Shown: piece after piece, positions 2,087-14,885 of the stretch
Numbering within the stretch: the first letter of the stretch is position 1
Layout: every line of letters begins with the position of its first letter
From: an uncultured archaeon
GTDB taxonomy: Archaea > Asgardarchaeota > Thorarchaeia > Thorarchaeales > Thorarchaeaceae
DNA length: 32,000 nt
Direction of reading: 5' to 3'
Assembly (NCBI GenBank): GCA_964354495.1
Contig: CAYHAA010000006.1
Coordinates: 120,817 to 152,816 of the forward strand
The notes under the pieces: generated by a model
Databases searched by the model: none
What the model was told of the DNA's origin: nothing
The model's input: only the letters and a program-made list of their open reading frames with translations
Made by a program: the position numbers and the translations under genes

Positions 2087-2842
2087 ATGATGTTTCATGC
2101 AACACTTGATAGCACAAAGATATGGAAACAGATTGTAGACGCGCTTGCTACACTACTCACTGAGATTCATTTTATTGTATCTGAAGGTGGACTCACGTTG
2201 ACGCAGTATGACTCTTCCAGAGCTGCTATGGTCTATCTCTTTCTACCAAACAGTGTCTTCCAGGAGTATGTCTGCACTGGGGAGTACAATATTTGTCTTG
2301 GCGTTGATGAGCTTGTGAAAGTGAGCAGACGCATGGCTGGAGATGACCGGTTGGAGTTTGATCTGGACGAAAACGAGAAACGCCTCAAGATTCGAATGAT
2401 TGGCCAGGTTGAGCGAACCTTCAGACTCCAACTCCTTACGCCACCGGAGGAACGAATCCAAAGCCTGAATCCTGGCTTTGAGGTTCGCGCAGAGCTGCTC
2501 TCAGACAGTTTTAAGCAGGCTGTGAGGGACATAGGGGTGGTTTCAAACCACCTGCGTGTGACAGCAACAAGTGACTCATTGACGTTTACTGGGGCAGGCG
2601 ATACTGGAGAAGCTGAGGTTCTTCTCAAGTTGGGTGATAACTCACCACTCCATCGCCTAAGTGTCAACGACAGAGCATCATCGACGTATGCACTCAGTTA
2701 CCTGACCGAAATAAGTAAGGCCATCTCTAGTGATAGTCTGACTCTGCAGATGACAGAGGACAAACCTCTCGTACTTGAGTTTGCTATTGCGGAGAATGGA
2801 GAGATGCGGTTCCTTCTTGCTCCACGAGTCGAACGGAGATGA
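2087..2842 (+). CDS. pcn: DNA sliding clamp PCNA, paralog 1
   Basis: 251 aa; DSSRAAMV.L.LP, FQEY, YALSYL, DKPLVLEF and FLLAPRVE are PCNA hallmarks. Confidence 0.95.
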   Translation: MMFHATLDSTKIWKQIVDALATLLTEIHFIVSEGGLTLTQYDSSRAAMVYLFLPNSVFQEYVCTGEYNICLGVDELVKVSRRMAGDDRLEFDLDENEKRLKIRMIGQVERTFRLQLLTPPEERIQSLNPGFEVRAELLSDSFKQAVRDIGVVSNHLRVTATSDSLTFTGAGDTGEAEVLLKLGDNSPLHRLSVNDRASSTYALSYLTEISKAISSDSLTLQMTEDKPLVLEFAIAENGEMRFLLAPRVERR

Positions 2843-2953
2843 TAGACCCGGTTTTCGATAATATACTGGCACCAGTTTCTTCCGAGAAGTACATTTTAAT
2901 GGCTATGGATACTGCTAATATCTGACGAAACGAGGTCTAGTCAAAGGTCTCTC

Positions 2954-3727
2954 ATGCAACTGGAGGAAAAGAATGTGTTCCACGCAACCTTGGACAGTAC
3001 GAAAACCTGGAAGCAGATAGTTGATGTCTTAGCGACTCTTCTCACTGAGGCACATCTTCGAGTTTCTGAGTCCGGAATGACGCTACGCCAGCTAGACTCA
3101 TCCAAAGCAGCAATGGTCGATCTGAATCTCCCATCTGCTGTCTTTCAGGAGTATGCATGTAAGGGAGAACATGACATCTGCTTGGGGATTGATGAGCTTA
3201 CCAGAGTGAGCAAGCGAATGGGCGGAGATGAACGCCTAGAGTTCAATCTCAATGAGAATCGACTAGAGATTAAGATGATTGGTCAGGCAGAACGAGAGTT
3301 CAGGCTTCAACTTCTCACTCCTCCAGACAGTCAGACCAACAAACCAAGTATGACTTTTGAAGTCAAGGCTGAAATGTACGCTGATGCATTCAAACAGGCA
3401 ATCAAGGACATAGGCGTGGTTTCAAGCCATGTGAAAATTCTCGCCGAGAAGAACATGCTCACCTTCTCGGGAGAGGGTGATACTGGTGAGGCACGAGTCA
3501 CTCTTTCAACTGAGGGCGAAGATCCAGCTCTCTTTCAATTGAAGGTCGGAAGTGGGCAAACTGCTGCCATGTACGCGCTTAATTATCTCTCTGAGATATC
3601 AAAAGCTATTCCAAGTGATAGCATAGTCCTCCAGCTCACTGCGAACAAGCCAATGATGCTGGAGTTCACAATAGCCGAGGCTGGCAGTATCAGCTTCATC
3701 TTAGCACCACGTGTTGAACGTAGATAG
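2954..3727 (+). CDS. pcn: DNA sliding clamp PCNA, paralog 2
   Basis: 257 aa; same hallmarks (DSSKAAMVDLNLP, YALNYL, NKPMMLEF, FILAPRVE); tandem paralog of 2087..2842. Confidence 0.95.
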   Translation: MQLEEKNVFHATLDSTKTWKQIVDVLATLLTEAHLRVSESGMTLRQLDSSKAAMVDLNLPSAVFQEYACKGEHDICLGIDELTRVSKRMGGDERLEFNLNENRLEIKMIGQAEREFRLQLLTPPDSQTNKPSMTFEVKAEMYADAFKQAIKDIGVVSSHVKILAEKNMLTFSGEGDTGEARVTLSTEGEDPALFQLKVGSGQTAAMYALNYLSEISKAIPSDSIVLQLTANKPMMLEFTIAEAGSISFILAPRVERR

Positions 3728-3846
3728 ACTTACCTGCCTATCCCACTACAGGACGTGAGTCACCTACGAAAAACACCAACCCGTCCACATTTCATTGGCT
3801 CTCATAGCAGAAACATAAAAGTCCACAAGGGGAATGGTCTTCTCCG

Positions 3847-5241
3847 ATGTCAAAAAGCACTCATGGAATGACAACAACAATCATGAAGCTAAGGCTTCTT
3901 TTCCACGAGTATTACTTAGAGGGCCCTCAATCCTTAGACGTACCAGAGCGAATCAACGCTCGAGAGTTTGCTCTGCAGACTTGGGAGCATAACTGGCACT
4001 GCATGGAACGAAGAAGTAAAGATGACTCGGGCAAAGAAACCCGAATCGGCTGCGGGAAATCAGGAAAGTCTTTCCAGCCTCTGAAGGAGTGTCCGAACTG
4101 CGGATCGGGAGAGGTCAAATCCACCAGTTGGATTCGGCATGTTGGTTACCGCTCTCAAGATGAGCTCCTGGCAGGTCTGACCAACTCCGCGCCTCAGAGT
4201 GTGTACCATTCTGCAGCATTCTATGGAGTTCCAATTGCAACACACATGCATGAAAAGGAGTGGCAGGGCGCGGAGCTAGTCTTCGATATAGACGCAGACC
4301 ACTTGGACCTGAAATGTGCAAATGACCATGATGCTTGGCGGTGCAATAACGTTGACTGCCATAAGACAGGAACTGGAGCTGCACCGGAAACGTGCCCGGT
4401 CTGCGGAAACAGCAGTTTCAATACGAGGAAATGGATTTGCGATAAATGCCTCAATGAAGCACGAAGGTATACCAAAAAGCTCTATGACGACTTCTTGGTT
4501 GGGGACTTCGGATTTGACCCAGGGAAAATCCAGCTCAATTACAGTGGACATAGAGGCTACCACGTGCGAGTTCGTGATTCTCAAGTATATGCATTGGACT
4601 CCAATGCGCGCGTAGAGATAGTCCACTATGTAATGGGCCTCGGATTCAAAAACGATAAGGCCAAGGCCATAGTCACTGAGCATAACGTTGAATTGATACC
4701 AGGCCGTGATGTCCCTGGCTGGACTGGACGGGTTGCTGATGCTATGATTGAGTTCATCCAAACCATTGACGCTTACTCGGGTACAGAGAAATGGGTCTCT
4801 GCCCTGAAGGATCATAGGGTTGATGCAGTGGATGGCCTTAAACGAGGTAGACCAGTTCTGAGCAAGAACGTGAAGGGAGTTGGTGTCAAGTATTGGCAGG
4901 AGATTGCAGAGAAGGCGGTTGAGCGCTATGGTAGTAAGATCGACAGACCAGTCACTCATGATATTCATAGAGTCATTCGTCTCATTGGGAGTCTAAATGG
5001 AAAGACTGGCTTGGTCGCATCTTTACTCACACGCGACAAACTTGACGATTTTGATCCATTCAGCGAATCAATTGCTTTCAATCAGGGCACCATGAAGGTC
5101 GTGTTTCATAAAGGGTCACGTGTTCCCTCGTTCAAGATTGCCAGCGAAGTCTACGGTCCATTCACAGAGGAAGAACCCGTGGAGTTGCCCATGGCTGCAG
5201 CAGTGTTTGTACTCTGTAAGGGGGTTGCATCGATTGAGTGA
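3847..5241 (+). CDS. priS: DNA primase small (catalytic) subunit PriS with Cys-rich insertions
   Basis: ELVFDIDAD (catalytic DxD), YSGHRGYH and VTHDIHRVIRLIGSLNGKTG motifs; pcna-priS-gins context. Confidence 0.93.
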   Translation: MSKSTHGMTTTIMKLRLLFHEYYLEGPQSLDVPERINAREFALQTWEHNWHCMERRSKDDSGKETRIGCGKSGKSFQPLKECPNCGSGEVKSTSWIRHVGYRSQDELLAGLTNSAPQSVYHSAAFYGVPIATHMHEKEWQGAELVFDIDADHLDLKCANDHDAWRCNNVDCHKTGTGAAPETCPVCGNSSFNTRKWICDKCLNEARRYTKKLYDDFLVGDFGFDPGKIQLNYSGHRGYHVRVRDSQVYALDSNARVEIVHYVMGLGFKNDKAKAIVTEHNVELIPGRDVPGWTGRVADAMIEFIQTIDAYSGTEKWVSALKDHRVDAVDGLKRGRPVLSKNVKGVGVKYWQEIAEKAVERYGSKIDRPVTHDIHRVIRLIGSLNGKTGLVASLLTRDKLDDFDPFSESIAFNQGTMKVVFHKGSRVPSFKIASEVYGPFTEEEPVELPMAAAVFVLCKGVASIE

Positions 5242-5242
5242 T

Positions 5243-5881
5243 ATGAATTACAACGGTATCAAGAGCGCTTGGGAAGATGAAACAGAGAAGGAAGCGCTCC
5301 AAGATCTGGCGGATCTTCGACTCAGCAAGATGATTCAATATCTCTCTAGTGTCCGTCTATCACTAGCAGCAACCAGTGCCGATGAACCCCTTCAAGCGGA
5401 CATACTGACCCAAGAGGCACTGAATCTAGAGTTTATGCTCGAAGATCTACTGGCACTTCGTAGAGATAAGATTGTGAAATCGGCACTTGCCGGACGGCGT
5501 CCGACAGGCGATATGACCCTTACTGAGGAAGAGCTCTATAATAGGGCTCAGCGTGCATTTGATGGTCATTCAGAGTTCATGAAGGAATCGCTCACAGGAT
5601 TGGTTTCATCTCAACCAAAGGCCAGGTCGAAAAAGGACAAGGAAGACAGGGAGGGAACCGAGGCAGTTTCAGTCAAGGCGCCTGACGAGATGGACTATGT
5701 TGTCGTGAGATTTCTCCGACCCATTGATGATGCTTTCATGGGACTTGATGAACTGACGTATGGCCCATTCAAGAAAGAAGATGTTGCTACAATACCTACT
5801 GCGAATGCGAGAATCTGGTTACGTGATGGCACTGCTGCCCGTGTAGTGCTTGAGGATGGTGTCATAGCAGATGAAAAATGA
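5243..5881 (+). CDS. GINS complex subunit Gins15/Gins51
   Basis: Helical A domain followed by B domain VVVRFLRPID...YGPFKKEDVATIPTANA. ATG 5243 lies 2 nt after the priS stop; priS-gins15 linkage is conserved in archaea. Confidence 0.85.
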   Translation: MNYNGIKSAWEDETEKEALQDLADLRLSKMIQYLSSVRLSLAATSADEPLQADILTQEALNLEFMLEDLLALRRDKIVKSALAGRRPTGDMTLTEEELYNRAQRAFDGHSEFMKESLTGLVSSQPKARSKKDKEDREGTEAVSVKAPDEMDYVVVRFLRPIDDAFMGLDELTYGPFKKEDVATIPTANARIWLRDGTAARVVLEDGVIADEK

Positions 5882-6488: not shown

Positions 6489-7031
6489 ATGGCTGAAACT
6501 GAAGAACGGACTGGTCCTCCTGTCACACTAATCGACCCCATTGATATGTCGAAACTGGACACAAAGTTTCGAGAGGAAATCAAAAGCATGCCAAATGGCG
6601 AGGAACTGTCGGCCTGTTTTGCGTGTTCGACTTGCACTGCTGCATGTCCAATTGCGAACATATGGAAATACAAGCCACATCAATTGATCCGAATGATGCT
6701 TCTTGGGATGCGCGAAGAGGTTCTCATGTCCAATGAGATATGGCTCTGTCTGACATGTTACCAATGCCAAGAACGGTGCCCTCAGAAGGTCCGTGTGACT
6801 GACATCTTCTTCGATTGCAAGAACTTAGCTGCGGAACAAGGTAAGGTCCCGCCGAAGGTTGTCGCACTTGCCAAGGAACTGCTTACTAAGGGCCAACTGT
6901 ACTCAGTGACTGCAGACTGGGAACGAGAAGACATGGGTCTAGAACCTGCGGTTCCGGGTCTCTCAGTCGAAGCTGTGAAGACTATCCTCGGGGGTACTCG
7001 AATTAGGAAGCTTGCGGGTGGTGAGCAATAA
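6489..7031 (+). CDS. hdrC: Heterodisulfide reductase subunit C-like (2x[4Fe-4S])
   Basis: CFACSTCTAACP and WLCLTCYQCQERCPQKV motifs; ATG 6489 preferred. Confidence 0.92.
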   Translation: MAETEERTGPPVTLIDPIDMSKLDTKFREEIKSMPNGEELSACFACSTCTAACPIANIWKYKPHQLIRMMLLGMREEVLMSNEIWLCLTCYQCQERCPQKVRVTDIFFDCKNLAAEQGKVPPKVVALAKELLTKGQLYSVTADWEREDMGLEPAVPGLSVEAVKTILGGTRIRKLAGGEQ

Positions 7032-7032
7032 G

Positions 7033-7899
7033 ATGCCCGTTTACAATCTTTACATCGGCTGCAGTGTCCCCGTGAACTATCCGAATTATGAGGCTGCCAT
7101 GCATAAAGTAGCTCAGGCTTTCGATATGGAACTTCTGTATATGGATGGAGTAGCGTGCTGTGGAAGTCCAAATCTGAGAGCTATCGACCACCTGGGCTGG
7201 GTAACAGTCAATGCAAGGACCCTTGCAATTGCTGATAAGAATGGTCATGATATTGTCACCCCCTGCAATGGCTGCTTTGGGTCCCTAAAGGAGGTCTATC
7301 ACCTTCTCAAGCATGATGACAAGCTCAGAAACAAGATTAACCAAGGCCTGAAGAAGGAAGGCCTTGAATTCAAGGGAACAACAACACCGCGTCATTTCGT
7401 TGAAGCGCTCTATAATGATATTGGAATTGATGAAATCCGGAAGAAGATCACGAAGCCGCTGGATGGAGTAGGAATAGCGATACATTATGGATGCCATCTT
7501 CTTCGTCCTGTGGATGTCACTGAGTTCAAGCCCGAATATCTTCAAGAACTCGTTGAAGTCACAGGCGCAACAGTAGTAGAGTATCCATTATGGAAGCAGT
7601 GCTGCGGAGCCACCGTGCTACCAGTAGACGAATCTCTAGGAATACGGCTTGCTCGCGACAAGCTGAAATCCATGAAAGAGGCCGGCGCTGTCTTTGCGAC
7701 CGTGGTATGTCCTGCGTGTGGCAATCAATTGGACCTACAACAGCTTGGCCTCAAGGAATCATATGGAGAGGAGTACAGTCTCCCTGTGTTGCTCTATCCC
7801 CAGATACTGGGGTTGGCAATTGGACTTGATGAAGAAGCAGTTGGTCTCAGCATGAATAGGGTTCCTGCTAATCCAATTCTGGACCATCTAGGTAGCTGA
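7033..7899 (+). CDS. hdrB: Heterodisulfide reductase subunit B-like (two CCG domains)
   Basis: YIGC..P, ACCGSP, TPCNGC, HYGCH, QCCGA and VCPAC motifs; ATG 7033 is 1 nt after the hdrC stop. Confidence 0.93.
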   Translation: MPVYNLYIGCSVPVNYPNYEAAMHKVAQAFDMELLYMDGVACCGSPNLRAIDHLGWVTVNARTLAIADKNGHDIVTPCNGCFGSLKEVYHLLKHDDKLRNKINQGLKKEGLEFKGTTTPRHFVEALYNDIGIDEIRKKITKPLDGVGIAIHYGCHLLRPVDVTEFKPEYLQELVEVTGATVVEYPLWKQCCGATVLPVDESLGIRLARDKLKSMKEAGAVFATVVCPACGNQLDLQQLGLKESYGEEYSLPVLLYPQILGLAIGLDEEAVGLSMNRVPANPILDHLGS

Positions 7900-7912: not shown

Positions 7913-9157
7913 ATGTCCAACCCAGTTCTCATAATTGGTGCTGGTGTTGCAGGGATGACAGCAGCAATCGAGCTAGCAGACTCAGGAATCAAGACAGTAC
8001 TTGTCGAAGAACTCTCTACAACTGGTGGAAATGCCCTCGACTTGTACAAGGCCTTCCCCACTGATGATTGTTTCTATTGCTTTGAAGGAAATCGTTGGCG
8101 TCCTGGAATCCGAAAGTGTTTCTACAGAAGTGCATTGGTAGATCAGCCAAACATCGATTTGAAGATGAACAGTCGGGTGGAAGAGATATCCGGCAATCCA
8201 AGCAGTTTTAGCATAGCACTTGCCATTGGGCCACAGTACATTGATCCGATGAGATGCATCTTGTGTGGCCTCTGCCTTGAGAAATCCAAATCCTTCAGTT
8301 TCATATCACCGCAGTGCCAACCACAGGCTGTCATCTACAAGCCTGATTTAAGAGACGAAGGCACTCAGATCGCTGCCAAAGAATGCCCCACACAGGCGAT
8401 CAATCTCGATGCAGAGCCCTCCAAGGAAACAATCACAGTCTCTGATATCATTATAGCCACAGGGTTTCACGAGATGAAACCATCAGAAATTGATGAGTAT
8501 GGCTATGGCACACACCCCAACATAATCACACAGCTTGAGTTGGCCAAGATCTTGGACCCGAACGGTCCTTCTGGAGGCGTGCTTCTACGCCCATCGGACG
8601 GGGCCCCGGCTAGACGAGTGATGATGATTCAATGTGTAGGTAGTAGAGATGAAAACTACTATCCATACTGCTCGAAGATATGCTGCATATTTGCTCTGAA
8701 ACATGCTAATATTCTGACCCGAGAGCGCGAGAATGTACAAGTCAGCGTGGTCTACATGGATATACGAACCTATGACAGATATGAGAGGTACTATCGTGAG
8801 ACCAGGCAGTCGGGCGTAGAATACATAAGAGGACGAGTAACGCGCGTTAATCCCAAAGAAGATGGTAGTCTCGCTGTAGTGGTGTACGATTCTCTCTTGA
8901 ATGCATATCTCCGGTTCTCAGTAGACTTGTTTGTACTGTCCTCTGCATTAGAGCCCTCTGCAGGAAGTGGACACATCATAGAGACTCTCAGACTGAAGTC
9001 TGCTAGCGGATTCATCGGCCCGCTATCTGCTGATGATCCGGTTGTTGTCGGAAATCATATATTTGCCTGTGGCACTGCACTTGGTCCCGCTGAGGTCCCT
9101 GAGAGCGTCACGCAAGCACGAGCTGTTGTTTCCAAGATATTGCAGAGCAGGAAGTGA
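7913..9157 (+). CDS. hdrA: Short HdrA-family flavoprotein (HdrA', QmoA-sized)
   Basis: IIGAGVAG FAD motif, FPTDDCFYC, CILCGLC...CP insert and QCVGSRD...CSKICC; lacks the N-terminal CxCG domain and the C-terminal ferredoxin. Confidence 0.88.
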   Translation: MSNPVLIIGAGVAGMTAAIELADSGIKTVLVEELSTTGGNALDLYKAFPTDDCFYCFEGNRWRPGIRKCFYRSALVDQPNIDLKMNSRVEEISGNPSSFSIALAIGPQYIDPMRCILCGLCLEKSKSFSFISPQCQPQAVIYKPDLRDEGTQIAAKECPTQAINLDAEPSKETITVSDIIIATGFHEMKPSEIDEYGYGTHPNIITQLELAKILDPNGPSGGVLLRPSDGAPARRVMMIQCVGSRDENYYPYCSKICCIFALKHANILTRERENVQVSVVYMDIRTYDRYERYYRETRQSGVEYIRGRVTRVNPKEDGSLAVVVYDSLLNAYLRFSVDLFVLSSALEPSAGSGHIIETLRLKSASGFIGPLSADDPVVVGNHIFACGTALGPAEVPESVTQARAVVSKILQSRK

Positions 9158-9164
9158 TGCCAAG

Positions 9165-11333
9165 ATGAACAATGACAACAAATCAGCAGTCCTCCTATGC
9201 ACCTGCGGAAAGCAACTACAGCTCTCGTTTGGCTTCCTGCAATCTGAGATTGAGAAGATTGACTCAGCTGTTTCGACCACGGTACACGACCAAGCATGTC
9301 AAGAGGAAGGCCTGACCAAGATTGCCGGGCTCTTAAAGGCAAATGGAGGCCGTCTTGTAATTGCAGCATGCACCAGCCAGAAGATTCAGCCCCGCATCAA
9401 CAGATATCTCAGGCAACAGGGGATTGATGGATCCCAGATTCAATATGTCAATATTCGAGAGCATTCCGCTTGGGTACACCGCGATGTTACGAAAGCAAGC
9501 AAGAAGTCTCTCGACATGATTCGTGGAACGCTTGCGAGGTCAAAGAGCTCAGTACCTCTCCTAATAGAGAGCAAAGAAGTCAGTAGACATGTGACAGTGA
9601 TAGGTGGTGGAATTGCTGGTATCGAGTCTGCATTAAGCCTCTCAAATCTTGGCTATGAAGTGGCCTTGCTTGAATGCAGCGATTGTCTTGGTGGTCATCT
9701 TCTACATCTTCCAATGGTTGCTCCCTCTGGTAAATCTGGCATGGAAGTCCTGAGCGGAAGGCTCGAAGCTATTGAGAGTAATACTAGCATCACTGTGATG
9801 ACAAAAACCTCGGTCAAATATGTGACTGGGGAAATGGGTGACTTTACTGTAAAGTATGTCACAGAAGGCGATGATGAGAAGTCTATTAGGACCTCGGCTG
9901 TGGTCCTTGCAATGGGCTTCAAGGAATTTGAGCCAATTGGGATGAATGAGTACAGGTACGGGAGGAATCCCGATGTGATAACCCAGTTTCAGCTTTCCCG
10001 TATGCTCTCCGAGGGTGTTCTTGGCAGGCCATCTGATAACAGTCCCATCAAGGAGGTTGTTATGGTCCAGTGCGTAGGAAGCAGGTCCGAAGACTACAAA
10101 CGTGACTGCAGCAAACTCTGCTGCACTTTTGCCATTGACAACTCCTTGGAACTCATGAAACGGATACCTGATGTCACTGTTCACATTGTATACATTGACA
10201 TTCGAGTACCCTTTGAGAATGAGATGGTCTACAAGGAATCTCGTGATAAGGGAGTAGACTATATCCGCGGGCGGATTAGTATGGTCTGGGAGCATGATGG
10301 CAAGACCCATGTCAGAATCTATGACTCTCTGATGGACCAGTATCTAGAAGTTCCTGCTGACTTGCTTGTTCTCGCGACTGCAATACTTCCTCCTGATGGA
10401 GTTGTAGAGCTGTCTGAAACCCTTGGCTATGCAGTTGAAGATGATGGACATGTAAAGGAACTCTACGGTAAACTTAGACGCAACGAGACTCGTCGGCGTG
10501 GAGTTATTGCTGTCGGAGGAGTCACGCGCCCACAGTTTGTGTCTGAAGCCATCATAGATGCTCAAGCTGGAGCTCTCATGGTCCACAATGAGCTACACGG
10601 TGGAGCGATTGAATCAGTCGCACGTGGATCCGTTCTTGACGTTGATGACTGTGTTGGATGTAGTCTCTGTGCCCAACAGTGTCCTCGTGGAGTCCCACTC
10701 ATGATTGAACAGACCGAAGCAGAAGAATCTGATGAAGAGCAAAAGATTCTCTTCAAGGCTGCACTTGATACTCTGAATTGCCATGCATGTGGGGTGTGTC
10801 AGAGCCTATGTCCATCTGGGGCCATTCAGCTTAATTTTCTCTCCAACGAACAATTGTGGTCCGAGATAGCTGCAGTACTTCAGGATGCAGGCCCAGAGGA
10901 TCCGATTACGCTATGTTTCTATTGCGAAGAATGTTCGGTATCGACAATAGATATTGTTGGAACTAGGAGAATGGAATACCCTACTAATACACGCCTGATT
11001 CCAGTTCCCTGTGCCGGTCGTGTGAGTATCATAGACATTCTCAAGGCTTTCGAACATGGTACTAGCACGGTCATGATTGCAGCATGCGAGAAGGACCGTT
11101 GTCATATTGGGGGGACTGGCAATGAGATTGCTCAGGTACAAGTAGATGTTGCTCGAGACATTCTGAATGCCATTGGTTGGAGGGGAGAACGTGTAGACAT
11201 GTTCAGAATGTTCAGCGCAGAACCTGAACGCTTTACCAAAGCTGTCAATGAGATGGTAAGGCGTGCCAAGGATTTGGGCCCTACGCCTGTCCATGAGGGA
11301 ACTGCTGGCAAGTGGAAGGAGGTGAGCAAGTGA
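9165..11333 (+). CDS. hdrA: HdrA-MvhD fusion flavoprotein (QmoB-like architecture)
   Basis: N-terminal LLCTCG...AC...AACT, VIGGGIAG, QCVGSRS...CSKLCC, two CxxCxxCxxxCP motifs, then an MvhD domain (CFYCEEC, PCAGRV, AACEKDRC). ATG 9165 preferred. Confidence 0.9.
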   Translation: MNNDNKSAVLLCTCGKQLQLSFGFLQSEIEKIDSAVSTTVHDQACQEEGLTKIAGLLKANGGRLVIAACTSQKIQPRINRYLRQQGIDGSQIQYVNIREHSAWVHRDVTKASKKSLDMIRGTLARSKSSVPLLIESKEVSRHVTVIGGGIAGIESALSLSNLGYEVALLECSDCLGGHLLHLPMVAPSGKSGMEVLSGRLEAIESNTSITVMTKTSVKYVTGEMGDFTVKYVTEGDDEKSIRTSAVVLAMGFKEFEPIGMNEYRYGRNPDVITQFQLSRMLSEGVLGRPSDNSPIKEVVMVQCVGSRSEDYKRDCSKLCCTFAIDNSLELMKRIPDVTVHIVYIDIRVPFENEMVYKESRDKGVDYIRGRISMVWEHDGKTHVRIYDSLMDQYLEVPADLLVLATAILPPDGVVELSETLGYAVEDDGHVKELYGKLRRNETRRRGVIAVGGVTRPQFVSEAIIDAQAGALMVHNELHGGAIESVARGSVLDVDDCVGCSLCAQQCPRGVPLMIEQTEAEESDEEQKILFKAALDTLNCHACGVCQSLCPSGAIQLNFLSNEQLWSEIAAVLQDAGPEDPITLCFYCEECSVSTIDIVGTRRMEYPTNTRLIPVPCAGRVSIIDILKAFEHGTSTVMIAACEKDRCHIGGTGNEIAQVQVDVARDILNAIGWRGERVDMFRMFSAEPERFTKAVNEMVRRAKDLGPTPVHEGTAGKWKEVSK

Positions 11334-13594
11334 GTCAATCAACACCTGAGAAGGCTATTGCACCCAAGAGACAACGAATGTTGGACATGGTATTAGCACT
11401 AGGTGGCCTCAAAGAAGAGTCCACAATTCCCCTCAGCAAAGTCAAGGATGAACTTGAGAATCTAAAGGCAGAGCTTGCACCCCTGACTGACACAATCATA
11501 TCCTTTCCCGATTCCTATTTTGAGAAATTCTTGGATACTGCAAAGAAGAGCAACATTGTTGCTGAGATAAGCGATCGAGGCATTCTGAAGGAGTCAATCT
11601 CGAATCTTGATCAGGCCCTGTCAAAAGGTGAATCTGTGCCACTAAAGGCGCTGAATAGAATACTTACAGACACACTCAGCAGAATGACTGAGGTAGAGGC
11701 GCGTCAAGACGTCAGTGTAGATGTCGATATGACTGCAACCACCTCGACCATATCGGGTCTGGTTTCTGAAATCGAGTCAATCACAGATGGTTTCGAGAAA
11801 GCCGCTGAAACAGAGGCTGAGTCTGCTAGGTCTGAATTGGTCGCGCTCGTCGAATATCTTGAAAGAGTCAAAGAAAAGGTCGAAACAGATCCTGACACAG
11901 CTCTAGATGAGCTTCAAAAGTTAGGGTCCCAGACTCGTTACGGTCCTGGACTAAGAGCAATAGCACAAGTAAAACGAGGGAAGCGAGAAGGTCGAATCGA
12001 TGATGCACGGTTCAACAAGATAGTCAGAGAAAATATACTCACCGAGGTCAACCGTGGAATAATCCTGTTCATACTCAATAAGATGGGATCCAAGACAGTC
12101 GTACAGGCCGGGGAGCTCATGCAGACCTCTCCTCAGGCTATACAGAGCGCTCTTGTGACTATGATTCAGAGGGGAGAGGTTGAGATGGTCGGTCTTGATG
12201 GTGATGCTCCTGTCTTCTCAAGGGTGCTCACAGAAACACCCAGCTCAACACTCCTCATGAAAAGGATTGTTCAACAGGTTCGGGGGATGGTAAAATCATT
12301 AGAAGGCGAAACCGCTGAAACTATGAATGAGTTACTTGGCAAGTTACAAGTACTACTCAAACGCCTCCAGATACTTGGAGCCTACAACGAGACTCTCCTA
12401 TCTGAGCGTATCAACAAGCTTCGAGAGACTGTTGATAGTGTCACCGAGGCAGTACTCGGCGCTCAGACTTCCGAGGATGCTGAGAATCTCAGGCTTCTCA
12501 TATCTGCAGGACTTGAAGCGTTCGCCCGCTTTCGTCTTAAAATAGCCCTAGAAAAGGGTCCTGCCCTTGTTTCAGGTGGTAATGTCTATGGTGAAAAACT
12601 AGACTCTGAAGTCTACAAAACCATAATGGACACCTATCTTGATAATGAGCTTGAGAGAGGCACAATCTTGATTCTCATTCGGGAATTGGGAGCTCTCACA
12701 GCACATGATCTGGCAGAGAGGACGAATATTCCACCAGATAGAATACTCAGACATCTACTCAGAATGAAGCGCGATGAACTTCTCACAATTGCTGGTGAGA
12801 ATCATGGGTATATTCTCTATGATGTTCCGAGGGCTCTTTCAGAGGCTGAGATCACAATACAGACTATAAGTAGTCTAGCTCTACAACTGTCTGAGGCCAA
12901 ACAAGAGCTTCAGAGGATACTGAGCGATCTGAAAGCGTCCGATATCGGCAGACTTGCCAACTCATTAGAAGTCTTTTCAAAGTCACGTGACAAGCTCGCA
13001 TCAGTCCGTGTTCATGGTGCTGCAATTGATGAATCCACCTTGAAAGATGTAGAGGATAAGATACGGTCTGCGGTTCTACTCACCTATCGGACACGTGCTA
13101 AGATTCCAAGCACCAGACCAAAGGTGACCCTTGAGGATCTATTGGATGTTGATGTGCCATCTGTTCTTGACGAGTACAGAAGCCTAATGGGTTATGCACC
13201 TCTTCTGGGGTTTGGAACAATAGAGTGGGAACAATCAAGGTGCCTCGGTTGCAGGTCATGTGAAATTGCCTGCCCAGAAGATGCGATTGAACTGAAGCCA
13301 CGAATAGGGATACACCGATTCTTCGAGATATCCGATGATGCGCTCTCCCAATTGCCATCAAACCGGTCACTGTTCTATAGGACCATTCAGAATCTCGCTA
13401 CGATAAAGCCAGTAGAAGAGATTCCCCTTGAAAAGGAAGTTCCAGGATTCGGCACAGTAGAGGTGGACCTCTGGCTATGCGTTGCTTGCCGTATGTGTGT
13501 AAGACGATGTCCAGGTCCTGAAGGTGGAGCATTGGAGCTGGAGCTGAAATGGAGCTTGCCAGAAATAGTGAAGCACATCACGTCAACTTCATAG
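11330..13594 (+). CDS. Large hypothetical Fe-S protein: helical regions, two winged-helix-like modules, C-terminal 2x[4Fe-4S] ferredoxin domain
   Basis: GTG 11330 overlaps the upstream TGA; CLGCRSCEIACP and CVACRMCVRRCP motifs; wHTH-like segments at ~12040-12210 and ~12650-12830. Confidence 0.8.
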   Translation: MSQSTPEKAIAPKRQRMLDMVLALGGLKEESTIPLSKVKDELENLKAELAPLTDTIISFPDSYFEKFLDTAKKSNIVAEISDRGILKESISNLDQALSKGESVPLKALNRILTDTLSRMTEVEARQDVSVDVDMTATTSTISGLVSEIESITDGFEKAAETEAESARSELVALVEYLERVKEKVETDPDTALDELQKLGSQTRYGPGLRAIAQVKRGKREGRIDDARFNKIVRENILTEVNRGIILFILNKMGSKTVVQAGELMQTSPQAIQSALVTMIQRGEVEMVGLDGDAPVFSRVLTETPSSTLLMKRIVQQVRGMVKSLEGETAETMNELLGKLQVLLKRLQILGAYNETLLSERINKLRETVDSVTEAVLGAQTSEDAENLRLLISAGLEAFARFRLKIALEKGPALVSGGNVYGEKLDSEVYKTIMDTYLDNELERGTILILIRELGALTAHDLAERTNIPPDRILRHLLRMKRDELLTIAGENHGYILYDVPRALSEAEITIQTISSLALQLSEAKQELQRILSDLKASDIGRLANSLEVFSKSRDKLASVRVHGAAIDESTLKDVEDKIRSAVLLTYRTRAKIPSTRPKVTLEDLLDVDVPSVLDEYRSLMGYAPLLGFGTIEWEQSRCLGCRSCEIACPEDAIELKPRIGIHRFFEISDDALSQLPSNRSLFYRTIQNLATIKPVEEIPLEKEVPGFGTVEVDLWLCVACRMCVRRCPGPEGGALELELKWSLPEIVKHITSTS

Positions 13595-13685: not shown

Positions 13686-14885
13686 ATGGTCGATTTCAAC
13701 CTATCCAATGAACAGCTGGAGCTAAGGAACAAGGCGAGAGCGTTTGCACAGGAGTATATGATTCCGTATGCACACTACTATGACAAGACTGGGAAGTTTC
13801 CACGTCCCATAATCAAGAAGTGTTGGGACGAAGGGCTCATGAACCTTTCAATCCCAAGAGAGTATGGGGGACAGGGTCTAGGTTCAATCGAAGAATGCGT
13901 CACGGTAGAGGAAATGGCTGCCGGCTGCGCAGGGATGACAACAAGCATCTACGTTAACTCTCTAGGAGCTGAGCCGATTCTGGTGGCGGGCACTTCCGAA
14001 CAGAAGGAGAAATACCTTCGACCACTCACTGAAGACCTCAAGTTCATCAGTTTCGCTTGTTCTGAACCAGGAATGGGTTCTGATGTCGCCGGGATTCAGA
14101 CCCAGGTCAAACGAGAAGGCGACGTCTATGTCTTGAATGGATCCAAGTTCTGGATCACCAACGCTCCACAGGCAGACACCTTCACAGTCTTTGCTAGTCT
14201 TGATCCGAGTAAGAGACACAAAGCATTATGCGCGTTCATCGTTGATGCTACCACTCCGGGAGTGAAGACTGGCAGGCCAGTTGAGAAAATGGGTCATAGG
14301 GCCTCCACAACGTCAGCAGTGATGTTCAAAGATGCTAAGGTCCCTGTCGAAAACCTGTTGGGCGCCGAAGGAGAAGGATTCAAGATAGCGATGAAGACAT
14401 TCGCAAAGACACGCCCCTCAATCGCTGCATTTGCTACTGGCCTTGCTCGATCAGCGATGGAATATGCTCGTGACTATGTGAGTAAGAGGGATGCCTTTGG
14501 CGAGAAACTCCACAACTTTGAGGCCATTCAGTTCAAGCTTGCTGAGATGTATATGAAGATTGAAGCAGCACGACTGCTCTACCTCAAGGCTGCTTGGACG
14601 GCGGATTTCGTTGGTGATTCTACTATTCCTGCAAGTGTTGCAAAGGCATTTGCTACAGATGCTGCAATGGAAATAGCCAGTGAAGTTGTCCAGATTCACG
14701 GGGGTTATGGATACATAGATCAGTACCCTGTGGAGAAGCTGTTTCGGGATGCAAAACTGTACCAAATCTATGAGGGAACGAGTGAGGTTCAACGATTGAT
14801 ACTCTCCCGTTATCTTCTCAGCGGATATGAACCTGCGATGGGCAAAATCCCACGTTGGTATAGCAATGAGCCGCCAGATTTGTAA
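13686..14885 (+). CDS. Acyl-CoA dehydrogenase (short/medium-chain type)
   Basis: SEPGMGSDV, LNGSKFWITNA, GEKLHNFEAIQFKLAEM, HGGYGY and IYEGTSEVQ (C-terminal catalytic Glu). Confidence 0.95.
   Translation: MVDFNLSNEQLELRNKARAFAQEYMIPYAHYYDKTGKFPRPIIKKCWDEGLMNLSIPREYGGQGLGSIEECVTVEEMAAGCAGMTTSIYVNSLGAEPILVAGTSEQKEKYLRPLTEDLKFISFACSEPGMGSDVAGIQTQVKREGDVYVLNGSKFWITNAPQADTFTVFASLDPSKRHKALCAFIVDATTPGVKTGRPVEKMGHRASTTSAVMFKDAKVPVENLLGAEGEGFKIAMKTFAKTRPSIAAFATGLARSAMEYARDYVSKRDAFGEKLHNFEAIQFKLAEMYMKIEAARLLYLKAAWTADFVGDSTIPASVAKAFATDAAMEIASEVVQIHGGYGYIDQYPVEKLFRDAKLYQIYEGTSEVQRLILSRYLLSGYEPAMGKIPRWYSNEPPDL

Follow-up and report, generated by a model that had tools for sequence, protein, structure and literature searches.

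A split HdrA pair, predicted to form an asymmetric heterodimer, in a conserved Hdr-like gene cluster of Thorarchaeaceae

Flavin bifurcation by HdrA-based enzymes has a central place in the energy conservation of anaerobes. In the methanogen HdrABC-MvhAGD complex (5ODC, later cryo-electron microscopy), complete HdrA chains form a homodimer with two copies per electron path, and MvhD is a separate protein bound to the hydrogenase. In the solved HdrA, Cys197 of one subunit completes the N-terminal [4Fe-4S] cluster of its partner (PMC9012536), and in Methanococcus maripaludis Sec197 lies between this N-terminal cluster (A3) and the flavin adenine dinucleotide (FAD) (PMC13518236). Lys409 touches the flavin N5 in 5ODC (PMC6405883, PMC13514486); E356 is said to position this lysine, and the E356/K409 pair has served as the criterion for distinguishing HdrA proteins that bifurcate from those that do not (PMC12054007, PMC9430772). 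Here we analyzed a 32,000-nucleotide stretch (the window) of a Thorarchaeaceae genome (contig CAYHAA010000006.1, positions 120,817 to 152,816) that carries two adjacent hdrA genes on the plus strand, a short hdrA (7913-9157, 414 aa) and a long hdrA::mvhD (9165-11333, 722 aa). We consider it reasonably likely that the two proteins are the flavoprotein core of a soluble, HdrA2-type Hdr-like complex, in which an obligate heterodimer of duplicated paralogues replaces the homodimer and the flavin of the short subunit is the likely coupling site.

Divided HdrA proteins are known from several systems. The tandem HdrA5/6 and HdrA12/13 and the fused HdrA3/4 of anaerobic methanotrophic archaea (ANME), as well as the Moorella enzyme, distribute the N-terminal domain and Cys197 in a complementary manner and were read as heterodimers, as a prediction only (Chadwick et al. 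2022, PMC9012536). As in the window, the tandem ANME proteins are encoded by adjacent genes, the copy with Cys197 lacks the N-terminal domain, and a symmetry-breaking heterodimer has been inferred. However, the ANME forms belong to methane-metabolising Halobacterota, whereas the window pair is nested in the HdrA2-like clade and differs from them in the fused MvhD, the one-cluster insert, the loss of Lys409 in the long subunit, and the attached genes for open reading frame 754 (ORF754) and an acyl-CoA (coenzyme A) dehydrogenase (ACAD). The Sporomusa ovata HdrA combines two thioredoxin-reductase-like modules, only one of which has the E/K pair (PMC9430772), and shares with the window the presence of one special flavin; MetFV-HdrABC-MvhD is also found in Moorella thermoacetica (PMC9430772). 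In contrast to the window pair, this HdrA is a bacterial, single fused chain coupled to methylene-tetrahydrofolate reductase, and its lysine-bearing module also keeps the glutamate. Sulfate reducers and sulfur oxidisers possess QmoAB(C) and QmoAB-HdrBC complexes; in some of the lineages, HdrBC stands in for QmoC (PMC3333476, PMC10504309). The window has the same order of a short HdrA-like flavoprotein followed by a long one with ferredoxin and MvhD-like domains, and HdrBC in the place of QmoC.

Another close system is HdrA2B2C2 of Methanosarcina acetivorans, in which MvhD is also fused to the HdrA C-terminus, HdrB and HdrC are the partners, and the gene cluster contains no hydrogenase (PMC5296606). 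The HdrA2-like and Methanosarcina HdrA1-type relatives also share TQxELAR (Ala356), Lys409 and a GIRKCFYR-type insertion with the short subunit of the window. HdrA2, however, has all domains (N-terminal domain, Cys197, full insert) in one polypeptide; in the window they are split over two genes, and the products score well under the 1100-bit cut-off of the HdrA2 model. Multiple HdrA copies and fusions have been mentioned without detail for Thorarchaeota (PMC11237513), and we did not find a description of this Thorarchaeal cluster in literature searches. The preliminary description of this locus had named an already characterised clade of identical architecture as an argument against it, and this argument applies in part: the same design already exists in ANME, in Sporomusa and in QmoAB-HdrBC, with the tandem forms biochemically uncharacterised. 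The split-HdrA architecture itself is known in kind, and what is new is a probably separate split inside the HdrA2-like clade together with a family-wide six-gene cluster.

The two HdrA proteins of the window are complementary in their domains. The short HdrA aligns to residues 146-561 of HdrA in solved structures (E 6e-70) and consists of the thioredoxin-reductase-like FAD domain only, with the Cys197 motif, a one-cluster insert and the Lys409 equivalent (phmmer against solved HdrA chains). The long HdrA, whose start is the ATG at 9165 and not at 9033 (consistent with orthologues of 721-722 aa), was delimited with Pfam, NCBIfam and phmmer. It contains the N-terminal CxCG cluster domain, the FAD domain, a C-terminal 2x[4Fe-4S] domain and the MvhD [2Fe-2S] domain, and lacks both the Cys197 motif and the insert: its residues 5-231 correspond to HdrA 3-233 and its residues 237-574 to HdrA 314-651, so that the inserted ferredoxin domain is skipped. 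Of the two HdrAs, only the long protein has the FlpD/MvhD domain and the Fer4 dicluster (Pfam). The motifs and codon coordinates named for both proteins in the preliminary description were all exact when checked against the sequence, and the complementary domain content that it had proposed was borne out by Pfam and by the alignment to solved chains.

In the short HdrA, FPTDDCFYC (residues 48-56; 8054-8080, plus strand, as are all features below) aligns with FPTDDCAMU of 9SFI_A, with Cys53 equivalent to C194 and Cys56 to C197/Sec197. The long HdrA has LPMVAPSGKSG at the position of FPTDDCxxC/U. Since the N-terminal domain is present only in the long and the Cys194/Cys197 motif only in the short protein, neither HdrA can build the N-terminal cluster alone or as a self-dimer. 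Conservation was counted in about 120 orthologues of each subunit (119 short, 120 long). The split of the domains between short and long was invariant, Cys53, Cys56, Ala211 and Lys263 were each present in 119/119 short orthologues, and Cys12, Cys14, Cys45 and Cys69 of the N-terminal domain were conserved among the long orthologues. Given conservation of 119/119 in the short and 119/120 in the long subunit, the motif features of both lie far beyond chance. Directly after the Cys197 motif, the short HdrA has an insertion, GIRKCFYR (8105-8128), with a Cys69 that is invariant in the alignment of orthologues. The short subunit has this insertion in common with the HdrA::MvhD fusions, whereas neither the long subunit nor canonical HdrA possesses it, which makes it, on the sequences compared, a signature of the HdrA1/HdrA2-like radiation. 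The ferredoxin insert of the short HdrA (8255-8386) is reduced to Cys115-x2-Cys118-x2-Cys121 and a later Cys158-Pro, all four cysteines being present in 119/119 orthologues. It is shorter than HdrA 238-315 and, by ferredoxin motif rules, would have room for one [4Fe-4S] cluster, not two. In the long subunit, the C-terminal ferredoxin domain (10650-10811; Fer4_7/Fer4_9) has two CxxCxxCxxxCP motifs with eight invariant cysteines, and the MvhD/FlpD domain (10911-11279; PF02662, 112 bits) matches solved MvhD/VhuD chains with E 6e-26, also with invariant cysteines.

A structural model of the complex agreed with this complementarity. The long HdrA (residues 1-485) modelled with the short HdrA gave an interaction prediction score from aligned errors (ipSAE) of 0.89, whereas none of the three controls scored above 0.00. 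The ipSAE mark is reached by 58/80 solved complexes and 2/110 mismatched pairs, and is only a rough guide here, as our own alignments were used. Agreement between the runs was 88% of contacts or more, and the partner had a predicted local distance difference test score (pLDDT) of at least 85. In the modelled interface, residues 14-17, 42-46 and 69-73 of the long subunit face residues 47-57 of the short subunit. The FPTDDCFYC motif, placed there next to the N-terminal cysteines of the long subunit, is very probably the predicted ligand given to the N-terminal cluster of the partner. The GIRKCFYR loop also sits at the modelled interface, where Cys69 may be an extra ligand or a redox-active cysteine. 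The heterodimer suggested in the preliminary description thus gained support from the complementary cluster domain and Cys197 and from a complex model that passed its controls, and we infer that the short and the long HdrA very probably form one asymmetric heterodimer.

If the two proteins did not pair, each HdrA would work in a complex of its own, as a homodimer or with HdrA paralogues encoded elsewhere in the genome. There is no lack of such paralogues, as the genome holds at least five further HdrA-like modules, and the complex model is compatible with other pairings too. But the long HdrA has no Cys197 of its own for its N-terminal cluster and the short HdrA has no N-terminal domain to serve, their genes are 7 nt apart and are neighbours in Thorarchaeal, Helarchaeal and Bathyarchaeial genomes, and the other paralogues are themselves already complementary pairs or fusions. 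We therefore give hardly any credence to separate complexes.

These paralogues are as follows. A second Hdr cluster on contig C14 (30121-40361) has the order hdrA (954 aa)-hdrC-hdrB-short hdrA (434 aa)-long hdrA (585 aa)-mvhD-mvhG-mvhA; its pair shows the same short/long complementarity, but Lys409 is present in both subunits and a hydrogenase is attached. The stop codon between the 434-aa and the 585-aa HdrA was considered as a selenocysteine read-through and rejected, since it is TAG and a normal N-terminus follows. Contig C12 encodes two fused double-module HdrAs (41784-45272, 1162 aa; 46747-49932, 1061 aa), in which the first module carries Cys197 and Lys409, and the second carries the CxCG domain, lacks Cys197 and has Lys409 replaced by Gln or Ala.

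The two subunits also differ in the environment of the flavin, though not as had been proposed. According to the preliminary description, only the short HdrA keeps the Glu/Lys pair associated with bifurcation. For the lysine, its mapping was right: the Lys of CCMYAMK, which has index 409 in 5ODC_A, aligns to Lys263 in CCIFALK of the short subunit (8699-8701; 119/119) and to Asp in CCTFAID of the long subunit (10137-10139; Asp in 119/120 long Thorarchaeal orthologues). The glutamate codon at 8537-8539 in the TQLEL motif of the short subunit, in contrast, had been taken for E356 in error. In the ungapped phmmer alignment to T351-A-L-E354-L-E356-R357 of 5ODC_A, and likewise in the MAFFT columns, Glu209 of Glu209-Leu-Ala211 (8537-8545) corresponds to E354 of the Methanothermococcus thermolithotrophicus HdrA and Ala211 to E356. 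In the TQFQL region of the long subunit, the Gln of Gln-Leu-Ser (9990-9998; Gln codon 9990-9992) is the E354 equivalent and Ser the E356 equivalent, Ser being found in 119/120 long orthologues. E356 is thus present in neither subunit, and only the Lys/Asp asymmetry at position 409 stands. Nor does the Glu/Gln contrast mark the subunits, for the long orthologues have Glu in 100/120 and Gln in 20/120 cases at the E354 column: it is, in the alignment, a peculiarity of the window genome and its close kin, and the Lys/Asp contrast is the conserved one.

The absence of E356 has to be seen in the context of the relatives. TQMELAR occurs with Lys409 in Methanosarcina proteins above the HdrA equivalog cut-off, and Ala at 356 occurs with Lys409 in ANME-3, Methanocellaceae, Methanoperedenaceae and several Asgard HdrA::MvhD proteins; the canonical HdrA of Methanothermococcus okinawensis has TTLELER and Lys409. 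Ala356 with Lys409 is therefore, as far as the aligned sequences tell, the usual state of the MvhD-fused HdrA1/HdrA2-like radiation. Because this combination is normal in the radiation that holds the window pair, the missing E356 says little about bifurcation, and the published E356/K409 rule is not transferable to this radiation. Within the HdrA2 class, in vitro bifurcation is known for M. acetivorans HdrA2B2C2 (PMC5296606).

Phylogeny placed both proteins in this radiation. The best NCBIfam model for both was NF040770 (HdrA2), with 278 bits for the short and 457 bits for the long protein versus the cut-off of 1100; the methanogen HdrA models NF041778/NF041891 gave 273 and 330 bits, respectively, versus 1400. 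The nearest full-length relatives, HdrA::MvhD fusions of 777-817 aa, fit the HdrA2 model end to end with 640-820 bits. In an exhaustive search of representatives at 50% identity, the Thorarchaeal short HdrA formed one isolated cluster, and its next relatives (39-42% identical) were short forms of Bathyarchaeia and Helarchaeota, HdrA::MvhD fusions of ~780-820 aa and many double-module HdrAs. Trees were calculated from the 250-residue FAD core with FastTree (302 modules) and with the IQ-TREE fast search and the Shimodaira-Hasegawa-like approximate likelihood ratio test (SH-aLRT; 82 modules). The short and long cores of the Thorarchaeal, Helarchaeal and Bathyarchaeial pairs formed one clade (SH-like 0.96 in FastTree; aLRT 97.9 in IQ-TREE), which was nested among HdrA::MvhD fusions in both trees. 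The long subunits were monophyletic (aLRT 95.5, IQ-TREE). Monophyly of the short subunits was unsupported (aLRT 11, IQ-TREE), and the long forms may branch from within the short ones. The pair clade was apart from the double-module HdrAs of the same genome and from 133 double-module representatives, in a tree without labelled ANME sequences.

The simplest reading of these data is that a full-length HdrA::MvhD gene was duplicated and the copies then underwent complementary domain loss, with the GIRKCFYR insertion, on this reading, lost in the long subunits. As the other HdrA modules of the genome show the same short/long logic but belong to other clades, the 'split HdrA' design arose more than once, and the present split, to judge from the trees, is probably of independent origin and took place inside the HdrA2-like clade. 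An unsplit HdrA::MvhD of 800 aa with Cys197, the insertion and Lys409 is encoded in another Thorarchaeote, isolate TM1M.79 (L047:2971-5412); no unsplit HdrA::MvhD gene turned up in the genome that contains the window.

This position bears on the 'QmoAB-like' label of the preliminary description, which is apt for the gross architecture and not for the affinity: the HdrA2 model gives the highest score for either protein, the pair is nested among HdrA::MvhD fusions, and GIRKCFYR is shared with these fusions. That the locus is a strict QmoAB-HdrBC complex, i.e., a member of the Qmo family feeding adenosine 5'-phosphosulfate (APS) reductase or another sulfur enzyme, is thus very improbable. A flavoprotein of ~410 aa followed by one of ~720 aa with two [4Fe-4S] clusters and MvhD is the published QmoA/QmoB layout; there are variants with QmoAB-HdrBC, as well as 'type II' QmoAB, close to HdrA, in organisms that possess neither Apr nor Dsr (PMC10504309). 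However, no aprA, dsrA, dsrC, qmoC or mcrA was detected above cut-off in the 97.7%-complete 3.3-Mb genome, which, as regards aprA, dsrA and qmoC, supports the view of the preliminary description that the organism is not a sulfate reducer, and the absence of APS reductase, Dsr and QmoC together with the HdrA2-like affinity sets the window apart from Qmo systems. None of the closest relatives, i.e., the HdrA::MvhD fusions and the archaeal short/long pairs, is named Qmo (in trees without authenticated QmoA/QmoB).

The elements of HdrABC-MvhAGD that can be aligned in the window, namely the FAD domain with its four cluster cysteines, Lys409 (short), the N-terminal cluster with the partner Cys197, the C-terminal ferredoxin and MvhD, allow a working scheme to be proposed. 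Electrons would enter through the MvhD [2Fe-2S] and the C-terminal 2x[4Fe-4S] of the long subunit. The low-potential arm would consist of the shared N-terminal cluster, completed by Cys194/Cys197 of the short subunit, and of the single predicted insert cluster of the short subunit. The two FAD-domain clusters would lead toward HdrC/HdrB, the FAD fingerprint and the four cluster cysteines being kept in both subunits. As a heterodimer, the complex would have one copy of each electron path rather than two. The short-subunit flavin, as the sole one with the N5 lysine, would be the likely site of bifurcation or confurcation, and the long-subunit flavin, facing Asp, would probably only relay electrons or be a structural remnant, although its FAD fingerprint is conserved. 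The proposal of one bifurcating and one conduit flavin in the preliminary description may therefore be retained as an inference. In contrast to HdrABC-MvhAGD, the window would encode a heterodimer with one copy per arm, without E356 and without hydrogenase genes, and the four domains and Cys197 are not in one chain.

In a simpler scheme, neither flavin bifurcates, and the complex is a relay that takes electrons from one donor (reduced ferredoxin, a pyridine or a deazaflavin nucleotide) and hands them to HdrBC or another partner, similar to what has been suggested for Qmo and for HdrA proteins of the sHdr type. This would fit the lack of E356 in both subunits, since the literature separates bifurcating HdrA by E356 and K409, as well as the insert cut to one cluster and an hdr cluster in which no hydrogenase or formate dehydrogenase gene was found. 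We nevertheless regard such a relay as unlikely: Lys409 is invariant in the short subunit, Ala356 is common to the whole HdrA1/HdrA2-like radiation including a class whose member bifurcates, and the input, low-potential and high-potential arms are each kept exactly once.

Several points weigh against a bifurcating heterodimer. The literature partner of K409 in the bifurcating flavin, E356, is missing from both subunits, and the survey of residue 356 covered Methanosarcina HdrA1-type proteins and relatives in the radiation, with M. acetivorans HdrA2 itself outside it. The Lys409-position residue in the long subunits varies (Asp in the Thorarchaeal proteins, Arg in the Bathyarchaeial and Asn in the Helarchaeial partner), which fits relaxed constraint and, just as well, an active flavin tuned differently in each lineage. 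As the HdrA homodimer has been solved and the complex model looks like it, the model may have passed by having memorised that structure; such likeness is not binding and counts as weak evidence. The heterodimer and its working are derived from sequence comparison and this model. Furthermore, without mcrA and DsrC no disulfide substrate is in sight in the genome, and the partner proteins score below the cut-offs specific for the heterodisulfide of coenzymes M and B (CoM-S-S-CoB): 101.6 bits against the 160 of TIGR03290 for the HdrC-like protein, and 276 bits against the 345 of TIGR03288 for the HdrB-like protein. Given the absence of mcrA, CoM-S-S-CoB, the acceptor in the F420H2- and ferredoxin-dependent bifurcation of the HdrA2 type, is an unlikely substrate.

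We looked in the genome for an orphan MvhAG that could serve the fused MvhD and found none. The only other [NiFe] hydrogenases are the Mvh set on C14, which comes with an mvhD of its own beside the second HdrA pair, and a four-subunit enzyme on C40 that resembles group 3b. H2 is therefore not indicated as the donor. An EtfAB is encoded elsewhere in the genome. GcvH-like lipoyl-carrier genes stand beside related short/long HdrA pairs in a Bathyarchaeon (L019:4928-5353) and at L030:174-608, and none was seen in the window; this neighbour is reminiscent of the lipoate-binding proteins in sHdr systems and gives a hint that HdrB of those relatives may act on a protein-bound dithiol.

The six genes of the cluster start with an hdrC-like gene (6489-7031, 180 aa, 2x[4Fe-4S]; Fer4_8/Fer4_17), whose ATG at 6489 fits the 180-aa orthologues and which is preceded by a TTTTAATA box ~60 nt upstream (sequence only). 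The hdrB-like gene (7033-7899, 288 aa) encodes two CCG domains (PF02754, two stretches); its ATG at 7033 is one base past the hdrC stop, and GGTGGTGAG precedes this ATG. Downstream of the two hdrA genes follow ORF754 (11330-13594) and, as the sixth gene, the ACAD gene (13686-14885, 399 aa, three ACAD Pfam domains). The first five genes are tightly packed, with spacings of 1, 13, 7 and -4 nt; the 4-nt overlap of ORF754 with the stop of the long hdrA indicates translational coupling. Two PCNA genes, priS and GINS lie upstream of the hdr cluster (window 2087-5881), with the same synteny in other Thorarchaeota (L015, L016); priS and GINS mark the organism as archaeal.

The cluster hdrC-hdrB-hdrA'-hdrA::mvhD-ORF754-acd is kept in 42-43 of the 43 sampled genomes of the family and in every sampled genus. 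The short HdrA occurs once in 42/43 of these genomes and ORF754 in 43/43, and a short HdrA at E ≤ 1e-100 was found in 0/157 genomes from 26 other families of the phylum. The ACAD gene lies directly 3' of ORF754 on the same strand, at a distance of 82-170 nt, in all 30 family genomes whose coordinates were compared, and also in SMTZ1-45 (L015). Since the whole PCNA/priS/GINS/hdr neighbourhood is stable, synteny among such close relatives is weaker as functional evidence. In more distant archaea the composition changes: two Helarchaeota have the order short-long::MvhD-ORF~748-hdrC-hdrB without ACAD, with ORF754 homologues following the long hdrA, and a Bathyarchaeon has hdrC-hdrB-short-long::MvhD without ORF754. 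In neither group is an ACAD gene found beside the module.

ORF754 has ~620 helical residues with two winged-helix-like units, followed by a C-terminal 2x[4Fe-4S] domain that is split by a ~70-residue insert. Beyond these Fer4 and MarR-like/winged-helix pieces, the family search yielded no match, and in the Atlas the sole hit was the Thorarchaeal cluster to which it belongs; AlphaFold2 gave a model of low quality (pLDDT 63.7, predicted template modelling score 0.35), and a Foldseek search against the PDB gave no match at E ≤ 0.001. ORF754 is a putative Asgard-specific iron-sulfur protein. The ACAD is Bcd-like. By gene order, these two always-adjacent proteins are the best candidates for partners of the complex, and the invariant ACAD suggests, from synteny alone, acyl-CoA/enoyl-CoA chemistry as one half-reaction. 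Going further, the six genes might encode an undescribed HdrA-based bifurcating or confurcating enzyme of Thorarchaeia that joins acyl-CoA/enoyl-CoA redox chemistry (ACAD, ~-10 mV) to ferredoxin via the single Lys-bearing flavin, with ORF754 as adaptor or wire. We regard this as quite doubtful.

If the link to the ACAD is incidental, the locus is one more set of uncharacterised Hdr paralogues. The six genes form a compact target; expressing them could bring to light a donor/acceptor combination that is new for Hdr-type enzymes, in an organism without CoM-S-S-CoB or DsrC. If the acyl-CoA reading is true, the complex would be an HdrA-based analogue of Bcd-EtfAB and would answer how these Asgard archaea dispose of the electrons from beta-oxidation. 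The electron balance of Asgard archaea in organic-acid oxidation, in turn, matters for how the archaeal host of eukaryotes is modelled.

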